Below the pieces are notes generated by a model. The model saw only the letters and a list, made by a program, of their open reading frames with translations. It was not told the origin of the DNA and made no database searches. From the sequence record PQ476010.1: DNA of 40,478 nt; one strand, written 5' to 3'. Position numbers and translations under genes: made by a program. This DNA comes from Escherichia phage PhiNW-B1. Positions 1,197-9,338 of the stretch are shown piece by piece (position 1 is the first letter of the stretch; the number at the start of each line of letters is the position of its first letter).

Positions 1197-2931
1197 GGCA
1201 GTAACCAATCGGATGAAAGAAGACTTCGTGTTCTTCTTATTTGTCCTCTGGAAAGCACTTAGCCTACCAGTACCAACCAGATGCCAGATAGATATGGCCC
1301 GTAAGCTCTCCGCTGGGGACAACAGGCGCTTCATCCTACAGGCGTTCCGTGGTATAGGGAAGTCCTTCATTACGTGTGCCTTCGTGGTCTGGAAGCTATG
1401 GAATAACCCAGACTTGAAGTTCATGATTGTGTCGGCCTCAAAGGAACGAGCCGATGCTAACTCCATCTTCATCAAGCGAATCATCGACCTCATGCCTCAG
1501 CTTCGGGAACTCAAACCTAAGCAGGGGCAGCGAGATGCGGTTATCAGCTTCGACGTTGGACCAGCCAAGCCAGACCACTCACCTTCGGTTAAGTCCGTTG
1601 GTATCACTGGTCAGTTGACTGGTAGCCGTGCTGACATCCTGATTGCCGATGACGTGGAGGTTCCGAACAACTCAGCGACTCAGGCTGCCCGAGACCGTCT
1701 GTCAGAGCTTGTGAAAGAGTTCGACGCTATCCTGAAGCCGGGAGGTACAATCATCTATCTGGGTACTCCTCAGAACGAGATGACCTTGTATCGTGAGCTG
1801 GAAGGCCGTGGGTACACCACTACTATCTGGCCTGCTCGTTATCCACGCGACAGGAAGGACTGGCAGTCTTACGGCGACCGTCTGACTCCTATGCTTCAGG
1901 CAGAGCTTGAAGAGGACCCTGAGTCCTTCTACTGGCGTCCTACCGATGAAGTACGATTCGATGATACGGACCTGAAGGAACGTGAGCTGTCCTATGGTAA
2001 AGCTGGCTTCGCTCTACAGTTCATGCTTAACCCTAACCTAAGTGATGCCGAGAAGTACCCTCTGAAGCTCCGTGACCTTATCGTAGCAGACTTGGACCCA
2101 GCGTCTAGCCCAATGGTCTACCAATGGCTTCCTAACCCTCAGAACAAGCGTGAGGACGTTCCTAACGTTGGACTCATGGGTGACTCATACCACACGTATC
2201 AGACTGTAGGTTCTGCCTTCAGTTCGTACACCCAGAAGATTCTGGTCATTGACCCTAGTGGTCGTGGTAAGGATGAAACTGGCTATGCGGTACTGTATCA
2301 GCTCAACGGCTACATCTTCGCTATGGAAGTTGGTGGTATGCGTGGTGGTTATGAAGACTCTACGCTGGAAGCACTAGCTAAGATTGGTCGTAAGTGGAAG
2401 GTCAACGAATACGTCATTGAGGGTAACTTCGGCGATGGTATGTACCTTGAGCTATTCAAGCCTGTAGCGGCCCGTATCCATCCTGCTGCTGTAACTGAAG
2501 TGAAGAGTAAGGGTCAGAAAGAACTCCGCATCTGTGACGTTCTGGAGCCTATCATGGGGTCTCACCGACTTATCGTTAACGCTGCTGCTATCGTCCAAGA
2601 CTACCAGTCAGCCTCTGATAAGGATGGTGTGCGTAACCCTATCTACTCTCTCTTCTACCAGATGACCCGTATCTCTCGTGAACGTGGAGCCTTGGCACAC
2701 GATGACCGACTTGATGCGCTGGCTATCGGTGTACAGTTCTTCGTTGAGTCGATGGCTAAGGATGCCAACAAAGGCGAACGTGAAGTCACTGAGGAGTGGC
2801 TGGAGGAACAGATGGAGAACCCACGGAAAGGCTTCGAGTCCATCCACACTGAGTTCTGGGACAATGGGGTCCGGGTGACTCACGATACGGACGACGAGCT
2901 GGGACTAGGGTCATACGTTACGTTCCACTAG
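1168..2931 (+). CDS. 19: DNA maturase B / large terminase subunit (T7 gp19-like)
   Basis: 587 aa; strong similarity by recall to T7 gp19 ([49 protein letters not shown]); RBS AGGAGG 6 nt upstream. Confidence 0.95.
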
Positions 2932-2940
2932 CTTAATGAA

Positions 2941-2989
2941 TAACTATAGGTGAAAACTGCATGAATACGCAGTTAGTAACCTATAGTTA
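2941..2989 (+). repeat. 49-nt palindrome (11-bp perfect outer stem TAACTATAGGT/ACCTATAGTTA with nested 6-bp stem) immediately after gene 19
   Basis: arms 2941-2951 and 2979-2989 are exact reverse complements; inner AACTGC/GCAGTT 2954-2959 and 2970-2975. Confidence 0.6.
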
Positions 2990-3025
2990 CTACCAGTCTA
3001 ACCTACTGTTTTACAAGGAGTTTGG

Positions 3026-3048
3026 ACTTAACTATCACTATAGGGAAG
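3026..3048 (+). promoter_or_regulatory. phage RNAP promoter (phiOR-like), +1 G at 3043
   Basis: ACTTAACTATCACTATAGGGAAG matches the 23-bp consensus repeated 11 times in the window; located between gene 19 and 19.5 as phiOR is in T7. Confidence 0.75.
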
Positions 3049-3227
3049 ACCCCCGGTTACTTATAGTATTACTGTAGTGAATATACATATGCAGACTTTA
3101 TGCAAGACCTTAGGAGGCAGACTCCGAGTTCTTACCTAAGGCTTGCACCGATGGAAGGAGGTGATATTAATCATAATACCTCCAATACAGATAGTCACAG
3201 ACCATAGATACAGGAGGTATGTAGCAT

Positions 3228-4291: not shown

Positions 4292-4418
4292 GTACCACAT
4301 CAACACGAAACAACGGTGAAGCCTAACACTGAAACAGGCTAGCACGGCGACGACAGCCAGTGCGAATGCTCTTTAACAATCTGGATAACTCTTAATGTGC
4401 GCCGATAGCGACTAACTA

Positions 4419-4450
4419 CAGGGCCTTTTAGTCTACATCTGAAGGCCCTG
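4419..4450 (+). promoter_or_regulatory. hairpin (9-bp perfect stem CAGGGCCTT/AAGGCCCTG), candidate RNase III site before first early gene (R0.3-like)
   Basis: arms 4419-4427 and 4442-4450; followed by ACTGATAGTCACTAAC, which recurs at 4768-4783. Confidence 0.4.
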
Positions 4451-4473
4451 ACTGATAGTCACTAACTTAACGG

Positions 4474-4728
4474 ATGGACACTATGAAACACTTAAGCACA
4501 ATCACTAATCGCAATGAAGTATTCGTGAACACTAAAGGTTATGCGTGGATTCAGCTTAAAGAGATGAGAGGAGCGCGTCACCGTGTGGTAGTTCGCAAGG
4601 TATCAAGCAAGCCGTTCAGCAACTACAGCGTAGATACTATGCGTATAGACAACGAGACTTACCTGATAGACTCGCAGATAACCGTGCGTCCTACAGCGGG
4701 CATCTCAGCTCCTTATTTCGCTAACTGA
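4474..4728 (+). CDS. hypothetical early protein (84 aa)
   Basis: ORF in early region upstream of ocr; no homolog recalled. Confidence 0.55.
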   Translation: MDTMKHLSTITNRNEVFVNTKGYAWIQLKEMRGARHRVVVRKVSSKPFSNYSVDTMRIDNETYLIDSQITVRPTAGISAPYFAN

Positions 4729-4745
4729 GAGTGATTAACTACAGG

Positions 4746-4783
4746 TCGTTAGACTGATAGCGGCCTGACTGATAGTCACTAAC
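4746..4783 (+). promoter_or_regulatory. second copy of early hairpin element (stem CAGGTCG/CGGCCTG plus ACTGATAGTCACTAAC)
   Basis: 7-bp stem with one G-U; shares 5' GA(C/T)TAACTACAGG and 3' CCTGACTGATAGTCACTAAC with element at 4410-4467. Confidence 0.35.
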
Positions 4784-4811
4784 ACATAATTAACTTTGAG
4801 AGGATATAACT

Positions 4812-5315
4812 ATGGAACGTAATGCTAACGCATACTATGAGCTGCTGGCTGCAACCGTTGAGGCATTTATCGAGCGTATTCAGTACGACCACCTGACTCA
4901 AGATGATGACTACAGCGATGCGCTGCATGAGGTCGTAGACGGTCAGGTTCCACACTATTACCACGAGATTTTTACGGTGATGGCTGCTGATGGTATAGAC
5001 CACGAGTTCGAAGACTCTGGGCTGATGCCTGAAACCAAGGACGTAACGCGTATACTACAAGCTCGCATCTATGAGGCGCTTTATAACGATGTGTCTAATA
5101 GCTTGGATGTAGTCTGGTTTGAGGCTGAAGAGGCAGACGAAGAGGATGAATATTGGGTAGTTGACGCTAAAACAGGCGCAATAATTGTGCAAGCTGTAGC
5201 TCTTGAGGTCGCTACTGCATGTGCCAAGGTCAACTATGCAATAGGTCGCCACCTGAAGGTGGAAGACATCAATGATAACGTAGTGTTCGACCCTGCGGCT
5301 GAGGACTGCGAGTGA
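4812..5315 (+). CDS. ocr: Ocr-like anti-restriction DNA mimic (T7 gp0.3 homolog) with about 54-aa C-terminal extension
   Basis: N-terminal ~113 aa align by recall to T7 Ocr ([35 protein letters not shown]); 167 aa versus 117 in T7. Confidence 0.85.
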
Positions 5316-5464
5316 TGGTAACTTATGGTCTCTGCCAGCACCACGTCGCCAACGCCCGGCTTATGGTCAAGACCGGGCGGTTAACCCATGATGAGACTAT
5401 GCGTCTCCTGAAGGTGGTCTACAAGCGCCGCAAGCGCATACACGACAGTTTGCACGCTGAGTGA
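5315..5464 (+). CDS. hypothetical small basic protein (49 aa)
   Basis: ATG overlaps ocr stop (TGATG); [49 protein letters not shown]; below track cutoff. Confidence 0.4.
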   Translation: MVTYGLCQHHVANARLMVKTGRLTHDETMRLLKVVYKRRKRIHDSLHAE

Positions 5465-5471
5465 TAAACGA

Positions 5472-5496
5472 GAGGTCACTACTGATAGGTGGCCTC
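5472..5496 (+). promoter_or_regulatory. hairpin GAGGTCAC / GTGGCCTC, member of the AGGTCA/TGGCCT hairpin family
   Basis: arms 5472-5479 and 5489-5496 pair with one G-U wobble. Confidence 0.35.
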
Positions 5497-5530
5497 AAAG
5501 ATTACCACTTACATTGATAGGAGAATTACT

Positions 5531-5698
5531 ATGAAATTTACAATCATCGCACTTTACGTAACCATTATTCTATCTTGGCTTACTGCGGTGCTCACTGATG
5601 GTAACGCATTACGACTGGGCTGGCTGGCAGTGGACATTATATTCTCTCCGGTAGGTGTCGTGCGCGGTATCTTGATGTGGATTGGACTGGCAGGATAA
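5531..5698 (+). CDS. small hydrophobic early protein (56 aa, predicted membrane)
   Basis: ATG 5531 preceded by AGGAGA 6 nt upstream; track ORF 5489 begins at a GTG without RBS. Confidence 0.5.
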   Translation: MKFTIIALYVTIILSWLTAVLTDGNALRLGWLAVDIIFSPVGVVRGILMWIGLAG

Positions 5699-5701
5699 AC
5701 T

Positions 5702-5899
5702 ATGAGTCTTGCACTATTGATAGCCATAGGCTATGGACTTATCGCCTACGTGCTGGTGAGAGACATCAACAAAGCGCGTAAAGTCTACAAATTCAACTAT
5801 GTACGTCTGGGCCGCTGGACTGTACGTCAACCTAACGGACGATTCATGCGCAACTTAGCGAACGTCTGGGATATAGCAACTATTGGGAGCAAACTGTAA
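5702..5899 (+). CDS. small early protein with N-terminal transmembrane helix (65 aa)
   Basis: MSLALLIAIGYGLIAYVLV hydrophobic N-terminus; tightly packed after previous gene. Confidence 0.5.
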   Translation: MSLALLIAIGYGLIAYVLVRDINKARKVYKFNYVRLGRWTVRQPNGRFMRNLANVWDIATIGSKL

Positions 5900-6159
5900 T
5901 GAAAACCGTATACATTAACAAACCATCTAGCCATAGCCGTGTAGAGCAAATAGAGCGTGACATGTTCTTACATCGCCGCATGAGGGCTGAGGGCCATAAG
6001 TACGAACTGATGAGTCTGGCGTTTGGTGGACGACCGATCACTGACGATGGTAAACTTTTAGTCTCAGGCTGGAAGGCGATAGACCAACGGTCAACCATCA
6101 AGCACACGACTCACGGTGACTTCAGCCATCTCCACGCTAACCCACTGATATGCAAGTGA
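5899..6159 (+). CDS. hypothetical early protein (86 aa)
   Basis: ATG overlaps previous stop (TAATG); no homolog recalled. Confidence 0.55.
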   Translation: MKTVYINKPSSHSRVEQIERDMFLHRRMRAEGHKYELMSLAFGGRPITDDGKLLVSGWKAIDQRSTIKHTTHGDFSHLHANPLICK

Positions 6160-6164
6160 TTATG

Positions 6165-6187
6165 ACTTAACTATCACTATAGGACTC
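6165..6187 (+). promoter_or_regulatory. phage RNAP promoter immediately upstream of the RNAP gene, +1 G at 6182
   Basis: ACTTAACTATCACTATAGGACTC matches the window consensus. Confidence 0.65.
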
Positions 6188-6256
6188 AAGGTCTAAGACT
6201 CCAAGTGAAAGACCAAAGAGACTTTAAGTGAAAGACTAATAACAAGGACTTTAAGT

Positions 6257-8938
6257 ATGAGCGTCATCTCTATTGACAAACACGACTTCTCTGATGTGTC
6301 GAACGCCATTGAGCCGTTTAACCTGCTGGCTGACCACTACGGGCAAGACCTTGCAGTCAAACAGCTTCAGCTTGAGCATGAGGCCTACACTGAAGGTGAG
6401 CGACGTTTCATCAAGAACCTTGAGCGTCAGACTGAGCGCGGGGAACTGGCAGACAATCAGGTCGCCAAGCCTTTGATGCAGACTCTGGTTCCTAAGATTG
6501 CGCAAGCCGTCAAGGAGTGGCACGAAGGTCCAGACGGGAAGCTGTCAACCTCTCGTCCTAGCGTAGCGTTCACCATGTTGAGCACTGAAGAGAAGGCCGT
6601 CAAGGACCGCTCTCTTCGCATCTCCTGCGAGTCTGCTGCGGTTATCATACTGAAGGTCATCCTCTCCAAGCTGGTCAAGCCTGAAGGGATACCGATTACA
6701 CCGATGGCCTCCGCGATAGGTCGCACACTTGAGGACGAAATCCGCTTCGGTCGCATCCGTGACAAGGAGAAGGAGCACTTCAAGAAGGCGATAGCTGAGA
6801 ACTTGAACAAGCGAGCTGGGGCATCCTACAAGAAAGCCTACATGCAAGCGGTCGAGGCCTCCATGTTGGAGCAAGGACAACTGGAAGATGCGTGGGGAAC
6901 TTGGAGTCCGACCGAGGCTGTCCACGTTGGCATCAAGATGCTTGAGATTGTCATCCAGTCAACACAACTGGTCGAGCTTAAGCGGTACGGTGCTGGCAAT
7001 GCAGCGGCTGACGTAGAGATGGTCCACCTGTCAGACTTCTGGGTCAAGAAGATGGCACAACGCGGATTTAGCCTTGCGGGTATCGCCCCAGTCTACCAAC
7101 CTTGCGTCGTTCCACCTAAGCCGTGGACCGGTGTCGTAGGCGGTGGGTACTGGGCCAAAGGTCGCAGACCATTACCACTGATTCGCTTAGGGTCTAAGTC
7201 TGCGGTGGCACGTTACGAAGACGTGTATATGCCTGAAGTCTATGACGCTGTTAACATCATCCAGAATACACCTTGGAAAGTGAACAAGAAGGTTCTGGAC
7301 GTGGTGAACATGGTCGAGAAGTTGAACAACACGCCTATTGATGACATCCCTCAGATGGAGCCACTGAAGCCTGAAGAATATGCGGGTGAGACTGAAGAGG
7401 AACTCAAGGCGTGGAAGAAAGCGGCTGCTGGTATCTATCGCCGCGAGAAGGCCAGACAGTCACGCAGATTGTCACTGAGCTTTATCGTGAACCAAGCTAA
7501 CAAGTTCTCTCAGTTCAAGGCCATCTGGTTCCCGTACAACATGGACTGGCGCGGTAGAGTCTACGCTGTGCCGATGTTCAACCCTCAGGGTAACGACATG
7601 CAGAAGGGTCTCCTGACTCTGGCAGTCGGTAAGCCTATTGGTGCTGATGGTTTCAGATGGCTGAAGGTCCACGGTGCAAACTGTGCGGGTATTGATAAAG
7701 TAACCTTCGAGGAGCGCATCAAGTGGGTGGAAGATAACCACGACAACATCATGGCTACCGCTAAGGCACCGATGGACAGCATTGAGTGGTGGGGTAAGTT
7801 AGACTCTCCGTTCTGCTTCCTAGCGTTCTGCTTCGAGTATGCTGGCGTAATGCATCACGGATTGTCTTACTCCTGCTCGCTGCCGATAGCATTCGATGGG
7901 TCCTGCTCTGGGATTCAGCACTTTAGCGCGATGCTTCGTGATCACATCGGTGGACATGCAGTAAACCTGACGCCTTCCGGTAAGGTCCAAGACATCTACC
8001 GCATCGTGTCTGACCGCATTGAGGAAGAGCTTAAAGTCCTGCTGGTTAACGGCACGGACAACGAGATGGTAACTCACGAGGACAAGAAAACTGGTGAGAT
8101 TACCGAGCGTCTCAAGCTGGGGACACGAGAGCTGGCCCGTCAGTGGCTGACCTACGGTATGTCACGAAAGGTCACTAAGCGTTCGGTCATGACTCTGGCC
8201 TACGGGTCGAAAGAGTACGGCTTCGCAGACCAAGTTTACGAGGACATCGTGATGCCAGCGATTGACTCAGGGTCTGGCGCTATGTTCACTGAACCAAGCC
8301 AAGCATCTCGCTTCATGGCTAAGATGATTTGGGAAGCTGTGAGTGTGACCGTAGTTGCTGCGGTTGACGCGATGAAATGGCTTCAGGGTGCTGCCAAGCT
8401 GCTGGCGGCTGAAGTGAAGGACAAGAAGACGGGTGAAATCCTGAAGCCTTGCCTTCCGGTACACTGGGTCACACCTGATGGGTTCCCGGTCTGGCAGGAA
8501 TACCGCAAGAAGGATACCACTCGTCTGAATCTGATGTTCTTAGGGTCATTCAACCTTCAGCCTACCGTCAACAAAGGCACGAAGAAAGAGCTGGATAAAC
8601 ACAAGCAGGAGTCAGGCATTAGCCCGAACTTCGTCCACTCACAAGATGGTAGCCACCTGCGCAAGACTGTAGTCCACACGCATCGCAAGTATGGCGTGAT
8701 GTCATTCGCAGTGATTCATGATAGCTTCGGGACCATCCCGGCTGACGCTGAATATCTGTTCCGTGGTGTCCGTGAGACGATGGTCGAGACCTACCGCGAC
8801 AACGATGTGCTGCTTGACTTCTACGAGCAGTTTGAATACCAGCTTCACGAGAGCCAGCGCAATAAGTTGCCAGAGCTTCCGAAGAAAGGTAAACTGAATA
8901 TCGAAGACATCTTGTCTTCAGACTTTGCATTCGCTTAA
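6257..8938 (+). CDS. 1: single-subunit DNA-dependent RNA polymerase (T7 gp1 homolog)
   Basis: 893 aa; extensive identity by recall to T7 RNAP (AIWFPYNMDWRGRVYA, NPQGNDM.KGLLTLA, DGSCSGIQHFSAMLRD, HDSFGTIPADA, C-terminal FAFA). Confidence 0.98.
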   Translation: MSVISIDKHDFSDVSNAIEPFNLLADHYGQDLAVKQLQLEHEAYTEGERRFIKNLERQTERGELADNQVAKPLMQTLVPKIAQAVKEWHEGPDGKLSTSRPSVAFTMLSTEEKAVKDRSLRISCESAAVIILKVILSKLVKPEGIPITPMASAIGRTLEDEIRFGRIRDKEKEHFKKAIAENLNKRAGASYKKAYMQAVEASMLEQGQLEDAWGTWSPTEAVHVGIKMLEIVIQSTQLVELKRYGAGNAAADVEMVHLSDFWVKKMAQRGFSLAGIAPVYQPCVVPPKPWTGVVGGGYWAKGRRPLPLIRLGSKSAVARYEDVYMPEVYDAVNIIQNTPWKVNKKVLDVVNMVEKLNNTPIDDIPQMEPLKPEEYAGETEEELKAWKKAAAGIYRREKARQSRRLSLSFIVNQANKFSQFKAIWFPYNMDWRGRVYAVPMFNPQGNDMQKGLLTLAVGKPIGADGFRWLKVHGANCAGIDKVTFEERIKWVEDNHDNIMATAKAPMDSIEWWGKLDSPFCFLAFCFEYAGVMHHGLSYSCSLPIAFDGSCSGIQHFSAMLRDHIGGHAVNLTPSGKVQDIYRIVSDRIEEELKVLLVNGTDNEMVTHEDKKTGEITERLKLGTRELARQWLTYGMSRKVTKRSVMTLAYGSKEYGFADQVYEDIVMPAIDSGSGAMFTEPSQASRFMAKMIWEAVSVTVVAAVDAMKWLQGAAKLLAAEVKDKKTGEILKPCLPVHWVTPDGFPVWQEYRKKDTTRLNLMFLGSFNLQPTVNKGTKKELDKHKQESGISPNFVHSQDGSHLRKTVVHTHRKYGVMSFAVIHDSFGTIPADAEYLFRGVRETMVETYRDNDVLLDFYEQFEYQLHESQRNKLPELPKKGKLNIEDILSSDFAFA

Positions 8939-9242: not shown

Positions 9243-9265
9243 CCTAAACTATCACTATAGGATTA
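9243..9265 (+). promoter_or_regulatory. phage RNAP promoter (phi1.1-like), +1 G at 9260
   Basis: CCTAAACTATCACTATAGGATTA. Confidence 0.75.
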
Positions 9266-9307
9266 GACTCAAGGTCATGACTCAAAGTCGTGGCCTTCAT
9301 GATTAAC
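9264..9307 (+). promoter_or_regulatory. conserved hairpin element (AAGGTCA / TGGCCTT), candidate RNase III site R1.1-like
   Basis: arms 9271-9277 and 9291-9297; flanks TAGACTCAAGGTCAT ... GTGGCCTTCATGATTAAC shared with copies at 268 and 16633. Confidence 0.4.
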
Positions 9308-9338
9308 CCTAAATAAACACTACTGGAGATTTAACCGT

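Follow-up and report, generated by a model that had tools for sequence, protein, structure and literature searches.

What fills the space that separates the ocr-like gene from gene 1, the RNA polymerase gene, in Escherichia phage PhiNW-B1, where T7 gp0.7 would lie, and do the small genes found there stand in for the missing kinase? The window, the whole 40,478-nt stretch of DNA that was analysed, had been annotated once before from its letters alone. This first-pass annotation placed less than 1 kb between the two genes, and indeed 941 nt separate the end of the ocr-like gene (5315) from the start of gene 1 (6257). The interval encodes four small proteins, gp0.35 to gp0.38 (Table 1), and is probably the right half of a K1F-like class I (early) operon of the T7 group that carries a diverged Gp0.4 orthologue. 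The product of the ocr-like gene on the left belongs to phrog_2568, is 50% identical to T7 Ocr and matches the Pfam ocr family (PF08684, E 3.6e-30) over residues 8-94 only. On the right, homologues of gene 1 in related loci (96-100% identity by N-terminal blastp) carry the Pfam domains RPOL_N and RNA_pol.

Table 1. Features of the PhiNW-B1 early region between the ocr-like gene and gene 1, with flanking elements
Feature	Position	Strand	Assignment or basis
RNase III-type hairpin, R0.3 equivalent, upstream of ocr	4729..4785	+	Context only
ocr-like anti-restriction gene (K1F gene 0.3), long form, 167 aa	4812..5315	+	Left boundary
gp0.35, 49 aa, basic, pI 10.3	5315..5464	+	Diverged member of the T7 Gp0.4 (FtsZ inhibitor) family
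RNase III-type hairpin, R0.5 equivalent, gp0.35/gp0.36 spacer	5458..5511	+	Fold and alignment
gp0.36, 55 aa, two hydrophobic helices	5531..5698	+	Putative accessory small membrane protein
gp0.37, 65 aa, predicted N-terminal membrane anchor and basic tail	5702..5899	+	T3 gp0.6 family, by sequence
gp0.38, 86 aa, three-helix core and strongly conserved C-terminal tail	5899..6159	+	Clade-restricted orphan
Phage-RNAP promoter just upstream of gene 1	6165..6187	+	ACTATCACTATAGG at 6170-6183; right boundary
Gene 1, T7-type single-subunit RNA polymerase, 893 aa	6257..8938	+	ORF; context only

The region is closely related to that of known phages. Its nucleotide identity is 99.4% to vB_EcoP_LNA3 and 92.8% to K1F, the type species of Kayfunavirus, and both vB_EcoP_LNA3 and UFJF_EcSW4 (99%) are nearer to it than K1F. 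K1F likewise lacks a kinase, carries the four genes in identical order between ocr and gene 1 and differs from the window by sequence drift only. The same kinase-less layout is found in the Kayfunavirus "Escherichia phage JSS1", which is distinct from the Salmonella T7-like phage to which the literature on the JSS1_004 kinase refers. Nor are the four ORFs themselves new: the GenBank records of K1F (AM084414 and DQ111067) already name genes 0.35, 0.36, 0.37 (called "0.6" in DQ111067) and 0.38. On the basis of these annotations the layout is an ordinary Kayfunavirus early region that was known already, and the general understanding of T7-group early regions is unchanged by our analysis.

The signals around the genes resemble those of T7 and T3. 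A hairpin in the gp0.35/gp0.36 spacer folds with -22.8 kcal/mol (z = -4.19; none of 200 shuffles was as good); it can be aligned to the R0.5 site annotated in T3 and to the 0.4/0.5 spacer of T7. For a second one upstream of ocr (-24.7 kcal/mol, z = -3.65), the aligned counterparts are R0.3 of T3 and the stretch that precedes gene 0.3 in T7. In position, in their arms (…AGGTC…GTGGCC…GATTA.CAC) and in their irregular hairpin type, both match R0.3 and R0.5 of T7/T3, and judged by sequence the spacer hairpin is a homologue of R0.5. The spacer between gp0.38 and gene 1 was also considered as an R1 RNase III site and rejected (z = -0.83, no alignment with R1 of T7 or T3). The first-pass annotation described all ORFs as tightly coupled, which is correct for the overlaps of ocr with gp0.35 (TGATG) and of gp0.37 with gp0.38 (TAATG). 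The other two junctions do not overlap: gp0.36 and gp0.37 lie 3 nt apart, and gp0.35 is separated from gp0.36 by 66 nt because the R0.5-type spacer intervenes.

Matches to the phage promoter motif number 11 in the window, against 0.32 expected by chance. One of them lies between gp0.38 and gene 1, in a spacer that is conserved in K1F, GW1 and CR44b. No phage promoter occurs between 3031 and 6170, and the scanned segment 2900-6400 contains no terminator-like site. With host-type promoter-like sites upstream and gene 1 downstream, this agrees with the earlier classification of the ORFs as early genes. By comparison with T7/T3, transcription of the interval by host RNA polymerase would start at promoters that precede ocr. 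RNase III may then cut the R0.3- and R0.5-type hairpins, as their homology and folding suggest, which would yield [ocr-gp0.35] and [gp0.36-gp0.37-gp0.38] mRNAs; the T7 counterparts are [0.3-0.4] and [0.5-0.6-0.7].

The first gene of the interval, gp0.35, encodes a protein of the T7 Gp0.4 family, as indicated by profile match, fold model and gene position. In precomputed tables, PF26807 (Phage_T7_GP04) is assigned to 52 of 52 gp0.35 homologues, the close ones being 76-100% identical. Those with PF26807 (E <= 1e-5) include three 49-aa proteins whose blastp identities to gp0.35 are 97%, 97% and 100%. T7 Gp0.4 itself matches phrog_5058, the group of gp0.35, with E 9e-5, and gp0.35 matches the Gp0.4 PHROG with E 0.049. 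A family-to-family comparison in hhalign gave a probability of 86% and E 5e-6 (unrelated control pairs, E 0.4-0.55), and plain pairwise BLAST between gp0.35 and Gp0.4 is marginal (E 0.063). The AF2 model of gp0.35 is a two-helix hairpin (helices 8-20 and 25-47, pLDDT 89.6), T7 Gp0.4 consists of two antiparallel helices (PMC13423816), and the BFVD structure matches to gp0.35 are small proteins from other T7-like phages. Both proteins have about 50 residues, and in both cases the gene directly follows gene 0.3, overlaps it at the start codon and precedes R0.5. They differ in charge (about +6 in gp0.35, about -2.5 in Gp0.4) and share 34% identity. Given the charge shift, the target or binding mode of gp0.35 may have moved.

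T7 Gp0.4 was described as an FtsZ inhibitor by Kiro et al. 2013 (cited in PMC9372555), and its toxicity via FtsZ requires V15, V22, W28, M32, L35 and Y39 (PMC13423816). Residues V11, V18, M29, L32 and Y36 of gp0.35 correspond to V15, V22, M32, L35 and Y39 of Gp0.4, so that 5/6 positions of the FtsZ face are identical vs 9/35 elsewhere (Fisher p = 0.013). These five are invariant or at least 90% conserved across the gp0.35 family. The sixth, W28, is essential for FtsZ binding in T7 Gp0.4 and aligns with His25. Only one of the six Gp0.4 residues that are read by CapRelEbc is kept.

The K1F literature describes a candidate phenotype for this gene. Infection by K1F leads to filamentation with multiple Z-rings and mislocalisation of FtsZ (PMC9372555). 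The authors of that study state that the phage "lacks the 0.4 genes" and call the inhibitory peptide unknown (PMC9372555). This makes gp0.35 a specific candidate for a gap that they state openly, and by sequence it is the obvious candidate for the K1F FtsZ inhibitor. Its most likely target is the synergy-loop face of FtsZ; binding there would stop Z-ring polymerisation, and infected cells would grow into filaments. We further predict that gp0.35 escapes CapRelEbc because the face that Gp0.4 presents to this sensor is not conserved.

Taken together with the genes downstream, we tentatively propose that gp0.35 is a naturally recoded Gp0.4, in which the FtsZ-blocking face would be retained and the CapRelEbc-read surface swapped, and that gp0.37-gp0.38 form a host-takeover or anti-defence module. 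If true, gp0.35 would exemplify how a phage effector can evolve to get around guard-type immunity. The BASEL phage collection, considered as evidence on CapRelEbc evasion, contains no Kayfunavirus. A rather doubtful alternative holds that gp0.35 is a retargeted structural homologue of Gp0.4 that has lost FtsZ inhibition, and that another K1F protein causes filamentation. The replacement of W28 by histidine, the altered charge and the low identity would fit a retargeted protein. However, five of the six FtsZ-toxicity residues are identical and conserved in the family, K1F does disturb Z-rings (PMC9372555), and K1F is not reported to carry any further gene of the Gp0.4 or Kil type (PMC9372555).

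A gene with a more scattered distribution, gp0.36, follows the hairpin. It has an AGGAG motif 7 nt upstream of its start, belongs to phrog_7319, and occurs in only 50 phage records; one phage that is otherwise 98.8% identical lacks it. Homology with T7 gp0.5 was rejected (hhalign probability 0.2%, different PHROGs), and the two proteins have position and membrane character alone in common. We speculate that gp0.36 is dispensable and fills a slot after R0.5 that is taken by gp0.5 in T7 and by a 29-aa membrane peptide in relatives.

The next protein, gp0.37, falls by sequence into the T3 gp0.6 family. It aligns with T3 gp0.6 at 39.7% identity over 63 aa (blastp E 7.5e-10), and both match phrog_2385 (E 5e-32 for gp0.37, E 9.1e-30 for T3 gp0.6). 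Hydropathy and pI (about 11) are alike. T3 gp0.6 is likewise 65 aa long and encoded after R0.5, has a hydrophobic helix at its N-terminus and carries the RFTVR..NGRF motif in a basic tail. In gp0.37, which is present in 222 phage records, a single hydrophobic segment lies at the N-terminus, and the family motif R(F/W)TVR..NGRF is conserved. The protein would combine a membrane anchor with a basic tail that is probably cytoplasmic.

The last gene, gp0.38 (phrog_7066, 223 phage records), is restricted to this clade. Its homologues form only 12 clusters among 1.84 billion representatives, and neither sequence nor fold searches found a match beyond its own small family, the PDB included. The AF2 model is confident for residues 14-61, and the tail (63-86) has a pLDDT below 50. 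This tail is nevertheless strongly constrained: dN/dS is 0.08 in the tail and 0.07 in the C-terminal half, the latter with 96 synonymous vs 24 non-synonymous differences, and T70, G73, D74, F75, H77 and L78 are invariant. Synonymous divergence is lower too in the 3' half (pS 0.15 vs 0.45), and the final codons look like the upstream sequence of a different phage promoter; some of the conservation may thus reflect selection on the DNA itself. We suggest that the invariant TxxGDFxHL tail, which is probably disordered, is held out by the core towards a host protein that is conserved across Enterobacterales. The genes gp0.37 and gp0.38 are always adjacent, and their products may act as a module in which gp0.37 is anchored in the membrane and the soluble gp0.38 docks its tail on a conserved enterobacterial protein.

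The gene order also raises the possibility that gp0.37-gp0.38 is a diverged version of the T3 gp0.6-gp0.65 pair, with gp0.38 as a remote homologue of gp0.65. In both cases overlapping genes come right after a gp0.6-type gene, and the proteins have an L..(M/L)AYG(A/G) motif in common (pairwise hhalign E 0.0015, 15 columns). The hhalign probability is just 17% over this 15-residue motif, the PHROGs differ and show no cross-matches, and the conserved GDFxHL tail has no counterpart in gp0.65 proteins, making such kinship unlikely. Searches of Pfam, NCBIfam and the PDB by sequence gave no match for gp0.36, gp0.37 or gp0.38, and a literature search found no functional study of gp0.35 to gp0.38 or T3 gp0.6. 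The earlier description of all four ORFs as candidates for uncharacterised activities thus applies to three, which have no known function, and not to gp0.35 with its place in the Gp0.4 family. The remote-homology check that it called for connects gp0.35 to the T7 Gp0.4 family and gp0.37 to the T3 gp0.6 family, and leaves gp0.36 and gp0.38 as the only two apparent orphans. Of these, gp0.38, with its constrained but probably disordered tail, is the one that deserves to be screened for interaction partners.

The lack of a gp0.7 kinase, asserted by the first-pass annotation for the interval, extends to the rest of the window: tblastn with T7 and T3 gp0.7 against all 40,478 nt recovered no kinase (best E 2.5-3), and like searches readily recover the 244-aa kinase of relatives. 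None of the four ORFs is similar to the T7 gp0.7 kinase/shut-off protein. We also rejected gp0.37 and gp0.38 as a detached shut-off (C-terminal) domain of the kinase (hhalign probability 0.3% and 0.4%), and dropped a GDF likeness of gp0.38 to the C-terminus of T7 gp0.7, noted on visual inspection, that T3 does not conserve. Relatives encode a 244-aa kinase-only version of the protein, a type found in about 48 phage records. In Cronobacter phage GW1 this kinase (phrog_15752, E 4.5e-114) adjoins gp0.37-gp0.38 on the upstream side, and gp0.37 and gp0.38 also occur together with the short kinase in SFPH2, ST29 and CR8. A gp0.6-type gene lies upstream of the kinase in T3-like phages, whereas it lies downstream in the kinase-bearing relatives of PhiNW-B1.

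These distributions contradict the claim that the ORFs are carried instead of a kinase. That they are novelties in its place, compensating for its loss, for example as anti-defence substitutes, has some appeal, as they are early genes of which three have no known function, and the T7 kinase acts broadly against host defences (PMC13645617), so that its absence might call for substitutes. Such compensation is very unlikely, however, given the co-occurrence of gp0.37 and gp0.38 with the kinase in four relatives, the presence of gp0.35 and gp0.37 homologues in kinase-bearing T7 and T3, and the dissimilarity of gp0.37 and gp0.38 to kinase and shut-off domain. The kinase is present in some members of the clade and absent from others, and the four ORFs are no replacement. 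Because this polymorphism exists within one genus, Kayfunavirus provides a natural system for studying which benefits and costs the absence of the broad anti-defence kinase brings to a T7-type phage.

The four ORFs are real genes, as first proposed; they are conserved across related phages, and all are under purifying selection (pooled dN/dS 0.42 for gp0.35, 0.15 for gp0.36, 0.37 for gp0.37 and 0.31 for gp0.38; 0.25 for the Ocr domain). The notion that some are non-genes conserved as regulatory DNA or RNA, to which their very short length and the promoter-like 3' end of gp0.38 next to a conserved promoter might point, is hardly credible in view of these ratios, the value of 0.07 in the C-terminal half of gp0.38, and reading frames that are intact in 15-20 diverged loci and accompanied by ribosome-binding sites or coupled starts. 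The sizes of 49, 65 and 86 aa stand as originally given, and the second ORF encodes 55 residues rather than 56.

The interval between the ocr-like gene and the RNA polymerase gene (gene 1) spans 941 nt and encodes four small proteins, gp0.35 to gp0.38, numbered as in phage K1F. Their reading frames are unbroken across 15-20 diverged loci, pooled dN/dS is low (0.42 for gp0.35, 0.15 for gp0.36, 0.37 for gp0.37 and 0.31 for gp0.38; 0.25 for the Ocr domain), and each start is either coupled or preceded by a Shine-Dalgarno-like sequence; we thus conclude that all four are real genes. This bears out the first-pass annotation, which had placed four small ORFs in less than 1 kb and described the first as basic and the next two as membrane-type. 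The pI of gp0.35 is 10.3, gp0.36 has two hydrophobic segments, and gp0.37 has a single N-terminal hydrophobic segment and a tail with a net charge of about +8.5; gp0.38 is soluble and basic. The second ORF had been given as 56 aa and has 55, whereas the other three sizes hold. Coupling of all four by stop/start overlap had also been proposed; it applies to the ocr/0.35 (TGATG) and 0.37/0.38 (TAATG) junctions, but gaps of 66 nt and 3 nt precede gp0.36 and gp0.37, respectively.

Features of the early interval in window coordinates
Feature	Position	Description
R0.3-type hairpin	4729-4785	upstream of ocr
ocr-like gene	4812-5315	167 aa, long form
gp0.35	5315-5464	49 aa
R0.5-type hairpin	5458-5511	putative RNase III site
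gp0.36	5531-5698	55 aa
gp0.37	5702-5899	65 aa
gp0.38	5899-6159	86 aa
gp0.38/gene 1 spacer	includes 6165-6256	
Phage-RNAP promoter	6170-6183	ACTATCACTATAGG
RNA polymerase gene (gene 1)	6257 (start)	

The description of this region was essentially correct, yet the layout from ocr to gene 1 is already known from GenBank records of K1F. AM084414 annotates exactly the same genes as 0.35, 0.36, 0.37 and 0.38, and DQ111067 annotates three of them, naming the third "0.6"; the UFJF_EcSW4 record enters each of the four as a hypothetical protein. Over 4400-6300, which takes in the interval and both flanks, identity reaches 99.4% with Escherichia phage vB_EcoP_LNA3, 99.1% with UFJF_EcSW4 and 92.8% with K1F. 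This segment matches 227 phage records, mostly Kayfunavirus and close relatives, with Escherichia, Salmonella, Enterobacter and Citrobacter hosts. The window represents a ~40 kb genome in circularly permuted form; K1F coordinate 1114 (gene 0.3) corresponds to 4812, and there is no long terminal duplication.

Two of the four proteins, gp0.35 and gp0.37, belong to known T7/T3 early families, one of which has a characterised mechanism. The other two are an accessory membrane peptide and a clade-restricted orphan.

gp0.35 resembles Gp0.4, the FtsZ inhibitor of T7. All 52 database homologues of gp0.35 carry PF26807, named Phage_T7_GP04 in the locus tables; these hits come from database tables, and a direct Pfam scan was empty because the Pfam set used lacks PF26807. 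T7 Gp0.4 matches the gp0.35 family phrog_5058 (E = 9e-5), gp0.35 matches the Gp0.4 family phrog_7202 (E = 0.049), and both match phrog_25044. Alignment of the two families by hhalign gives a probability of 86% (E = 5e-6, residues 2-43 against 6-46), compared with E = 0.4-0.55 for unrelated control pairs. Both genes directly follow gene 0.3 with an overlapping start and precede R0.5, an RNase III processing site of T7 and T3. AlphaFold2 predicts a two-helix hairpin for gp0.35 (pLDDT 89.6), in agreement with the published description of Gp0.4 as two antiparallel helices (PMC13423816). These comparisons identify gp0.35 as a Gp0.4 homologue. In BFVD, its structural matches are small proteins from other T7-like phages. 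As a separate observation, the early region of phage ZG49 carries two Gp0.4/gp0.35-like genes of 76 and 49 aa (L019 1828-2058 and 2213-2362).

The toxicity of Gp0.4 is abolished by each of V15A, V22A, W28A, M32A, L35A and Y39A, while A12, T14, L16, S19, R23 and K36 are required solely for recognition by the defence protein CapRelEbc (PMC13423816). When the two families are placed in the hhalign register, gp0.35 retains five of the six FtsZ-face residues (as V11, V18, M29, L32 and Y36), with H25 replacing W28, compared with one of six on the CapRel face. Identity is enriched on the FtsZ face (5/6 versus 9/35 elsewhere, p = 0.013), and these conserved residues vary little or not at all among gp0.35 family members. 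The charge is reversed, from -2.5 in T7 Gp0.4 to +6 in gp0.35. K1F infection produces filaments with multiple Z-rings; the same study reports that K1F lacks gene 0.4 and describes the inhibitory peptide as unknown (PMC9372555). gp0.35 is the obvious candidate for the K1F FtsZ inhibitor, with the W28-to-His substitution and the charge reversal as caveats, and is predicted to escape CapRelEbc sensing. This testable assignment is the main value of the analysis.

The 66-nt gp0.35/gp0.36 spacer region forms an irregular hairpin (-22.8 kcal/mol, z = -4.19; 0 of 200 shuffles equally stable) that matches the annotated T3 R0.5 and the T7 0.4/0.5 spacer in an arm-by-arm alignment. We infer that it is cleaved as an R0.5-type RNase III site. 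The segment upstream of ocr likewise folds and can be aligned with R0.3. None of the sigma-70-like promoter matches starts within 5315-6159, a scan of the early region found no terminator-like site, and the closest phage promoters are at 3031 and 6170. Because of these hairpins and the lack of an internal promoter or terminator, the early transcript would, by analogy to T7/T3, probably be processed into an ocr-gp0.35 mRNA and a gp0.36-gp0.37-gp0.38 mRNA. The promoter directly upstream of gene 1 would let the phage polymerase transcribe its own gene. Conservation of the whole gp0.38/gene 1 spacer extends to K1F, GW1 and CR44b, and the spacer does not align with the R1 region of T7 or T3. Two more RNase III-type sites (TTAGACTCAAGGTC…GTGGCCTT.ATG.TTAAC), mutually 83% identical, occur at 268-320 and 9263-9315, the latter after a phage promoter at 9248.

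gp0.37 and T3 gp0.6 share 39.7% identity over 63 aa (E = 7.5e-10), and phrog_2385 holds both. In this family an N-terminal hydrophobic helix occurs together with an R(F/W)TVR..NGRF motif, and gp0.37 is of the T3 gp0.6 type. In T3-, Kvp1- and K11-like phages the family always follows R0.5 and usually lies upstream of the kinase; a literature search found no functional study of it. gp0.36 is an accessory membrane peptide. It occurs in 50 phage records, compared with 222-223 for gp0.37 and gp0.38, and 216Ecol046PP lacks it despite 98.8% identity elsewhere. T7 has gp0.5 in this slot, to which gp0.36 has no detectable relation (hhalign 0.2%). In relatives, a conserved 29-aa single-helix peptide occurs there instead of or besides gp0.36. 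This membrane micro-protein (MSVGYWVCLAPVIWMIGYGIYDCIKRKSL) immediately precedes gp0.37, its stop codon overlapping the gp0.37 start (L008 2632-2721, L010 3218-3307, L018 2016-2105 and others); it is not in the window, and most records leave it unannotated.

A T7-type gene 0.7 kinase is indeed absent, as had been noted: tblastn with T7 and T3 gp0.7 against the whole window found none (best E 2.5-3). The idea that the small ORFs are carried instead of the kinase is not supported. Cronobacter phage GW1 (L023) encodes, in order, a SAM lyase, a DUF7300 protein, a 41-aa ORF, a 115-aa HTH protein, a 244-aa kinase (phrog_15752, E = 4.5e-114; 2439-3173), gp0.37, gp0.38 and gene 1, and Salmonella phage ST29 also carries gp0.37 besides a kinase. 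gp0.37 and gp0.38 are therefore not kinase substitutes. The GW1 protein is a kinase-only version of the T7 enzyme, without the C-terminal shut-off domain. Kinases at least 60% identical to it occur in ~48 phage records, for example SFPH2 and ST29, and that of CR8 is more distant (54.5%). The kinase is thus polymorphic within the clade.

The interval is a mosaic cassette region. The Ocr slot of relatives holds a short (110-114 aa) or long (163-169 aa) form, a SAM lyase or a 174-aa phrog_11084 protein, and endonuclease VII-type and HTH genes are variably present. In the 167-aa Ocr homologue, residues 8-94 alone fall within the Pfam ocr domain, and a C-terminal extension accounts for ~55 aa. Given the broad anti-defence role of T7-type kinases (PMC13645617), lineages without one, such as that of this phage, presumably lose host range or make up for the loss by other means. 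The LM33_P1 record (LT594300; L063 713-1216) labels the 167-aa Ocr homologue "Phage protein kinase", which we checked and found to be a misannotation, and the Vec13 record (MH400309) has a "protein kinase" label within this region. Such labels could mislead kinase searches across Kayfunavirus.

gp0.38 is a true, clade-restricted orphan. Pfam, NCBIfam and PDB sequence searches gave no match, and a profile search run in full against 1.84 billion representatives returned only 12 clusters. A word-indexed search yielded 131 proteins; identity is at least 68% throughout the 120 listed. gp0.38 shows no similarity to the kinase or its shut-off domain and a weak motif match (probability 17%) to T3 gp0.65, whose gene follows gp0.6 in T3. 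AlphaFold2 models three helices confidently (residues 14-61) but not the tail (63-86), which is the most conserved part: T70, G73, D74, F75, H77 and L78 are invariant even among members 35-60% identical, and dN/dS is 0.07 for residues 44-86, 0.08 for the tail and 0.34 for the N-terminal half. We can only hypothesize that the tail is a short linear motif, which would fold upon binding a host partner. Some of the conservation may be at the DNA level, because the 3' half also has reduced synonymous divergence and a 52-nt direct repeat (2993-3044 and 6132-6183, 79% identical) pairs the last ~nine codons of gp0.38 plus the gene 1 promoter with sequence that precedes the leftmost phage promoter (3031). 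This suggests a duplicated promoter context that overlaps the gp0.38 coding sequence. In many relatives (alignment A1; L013, L015, L017, L018) gp0.38 is N-terminally extended to 108, 130 or 139 aa, and some extended forms contain a DKNGVEWKYVG..SRG.NYWEKTG segment.
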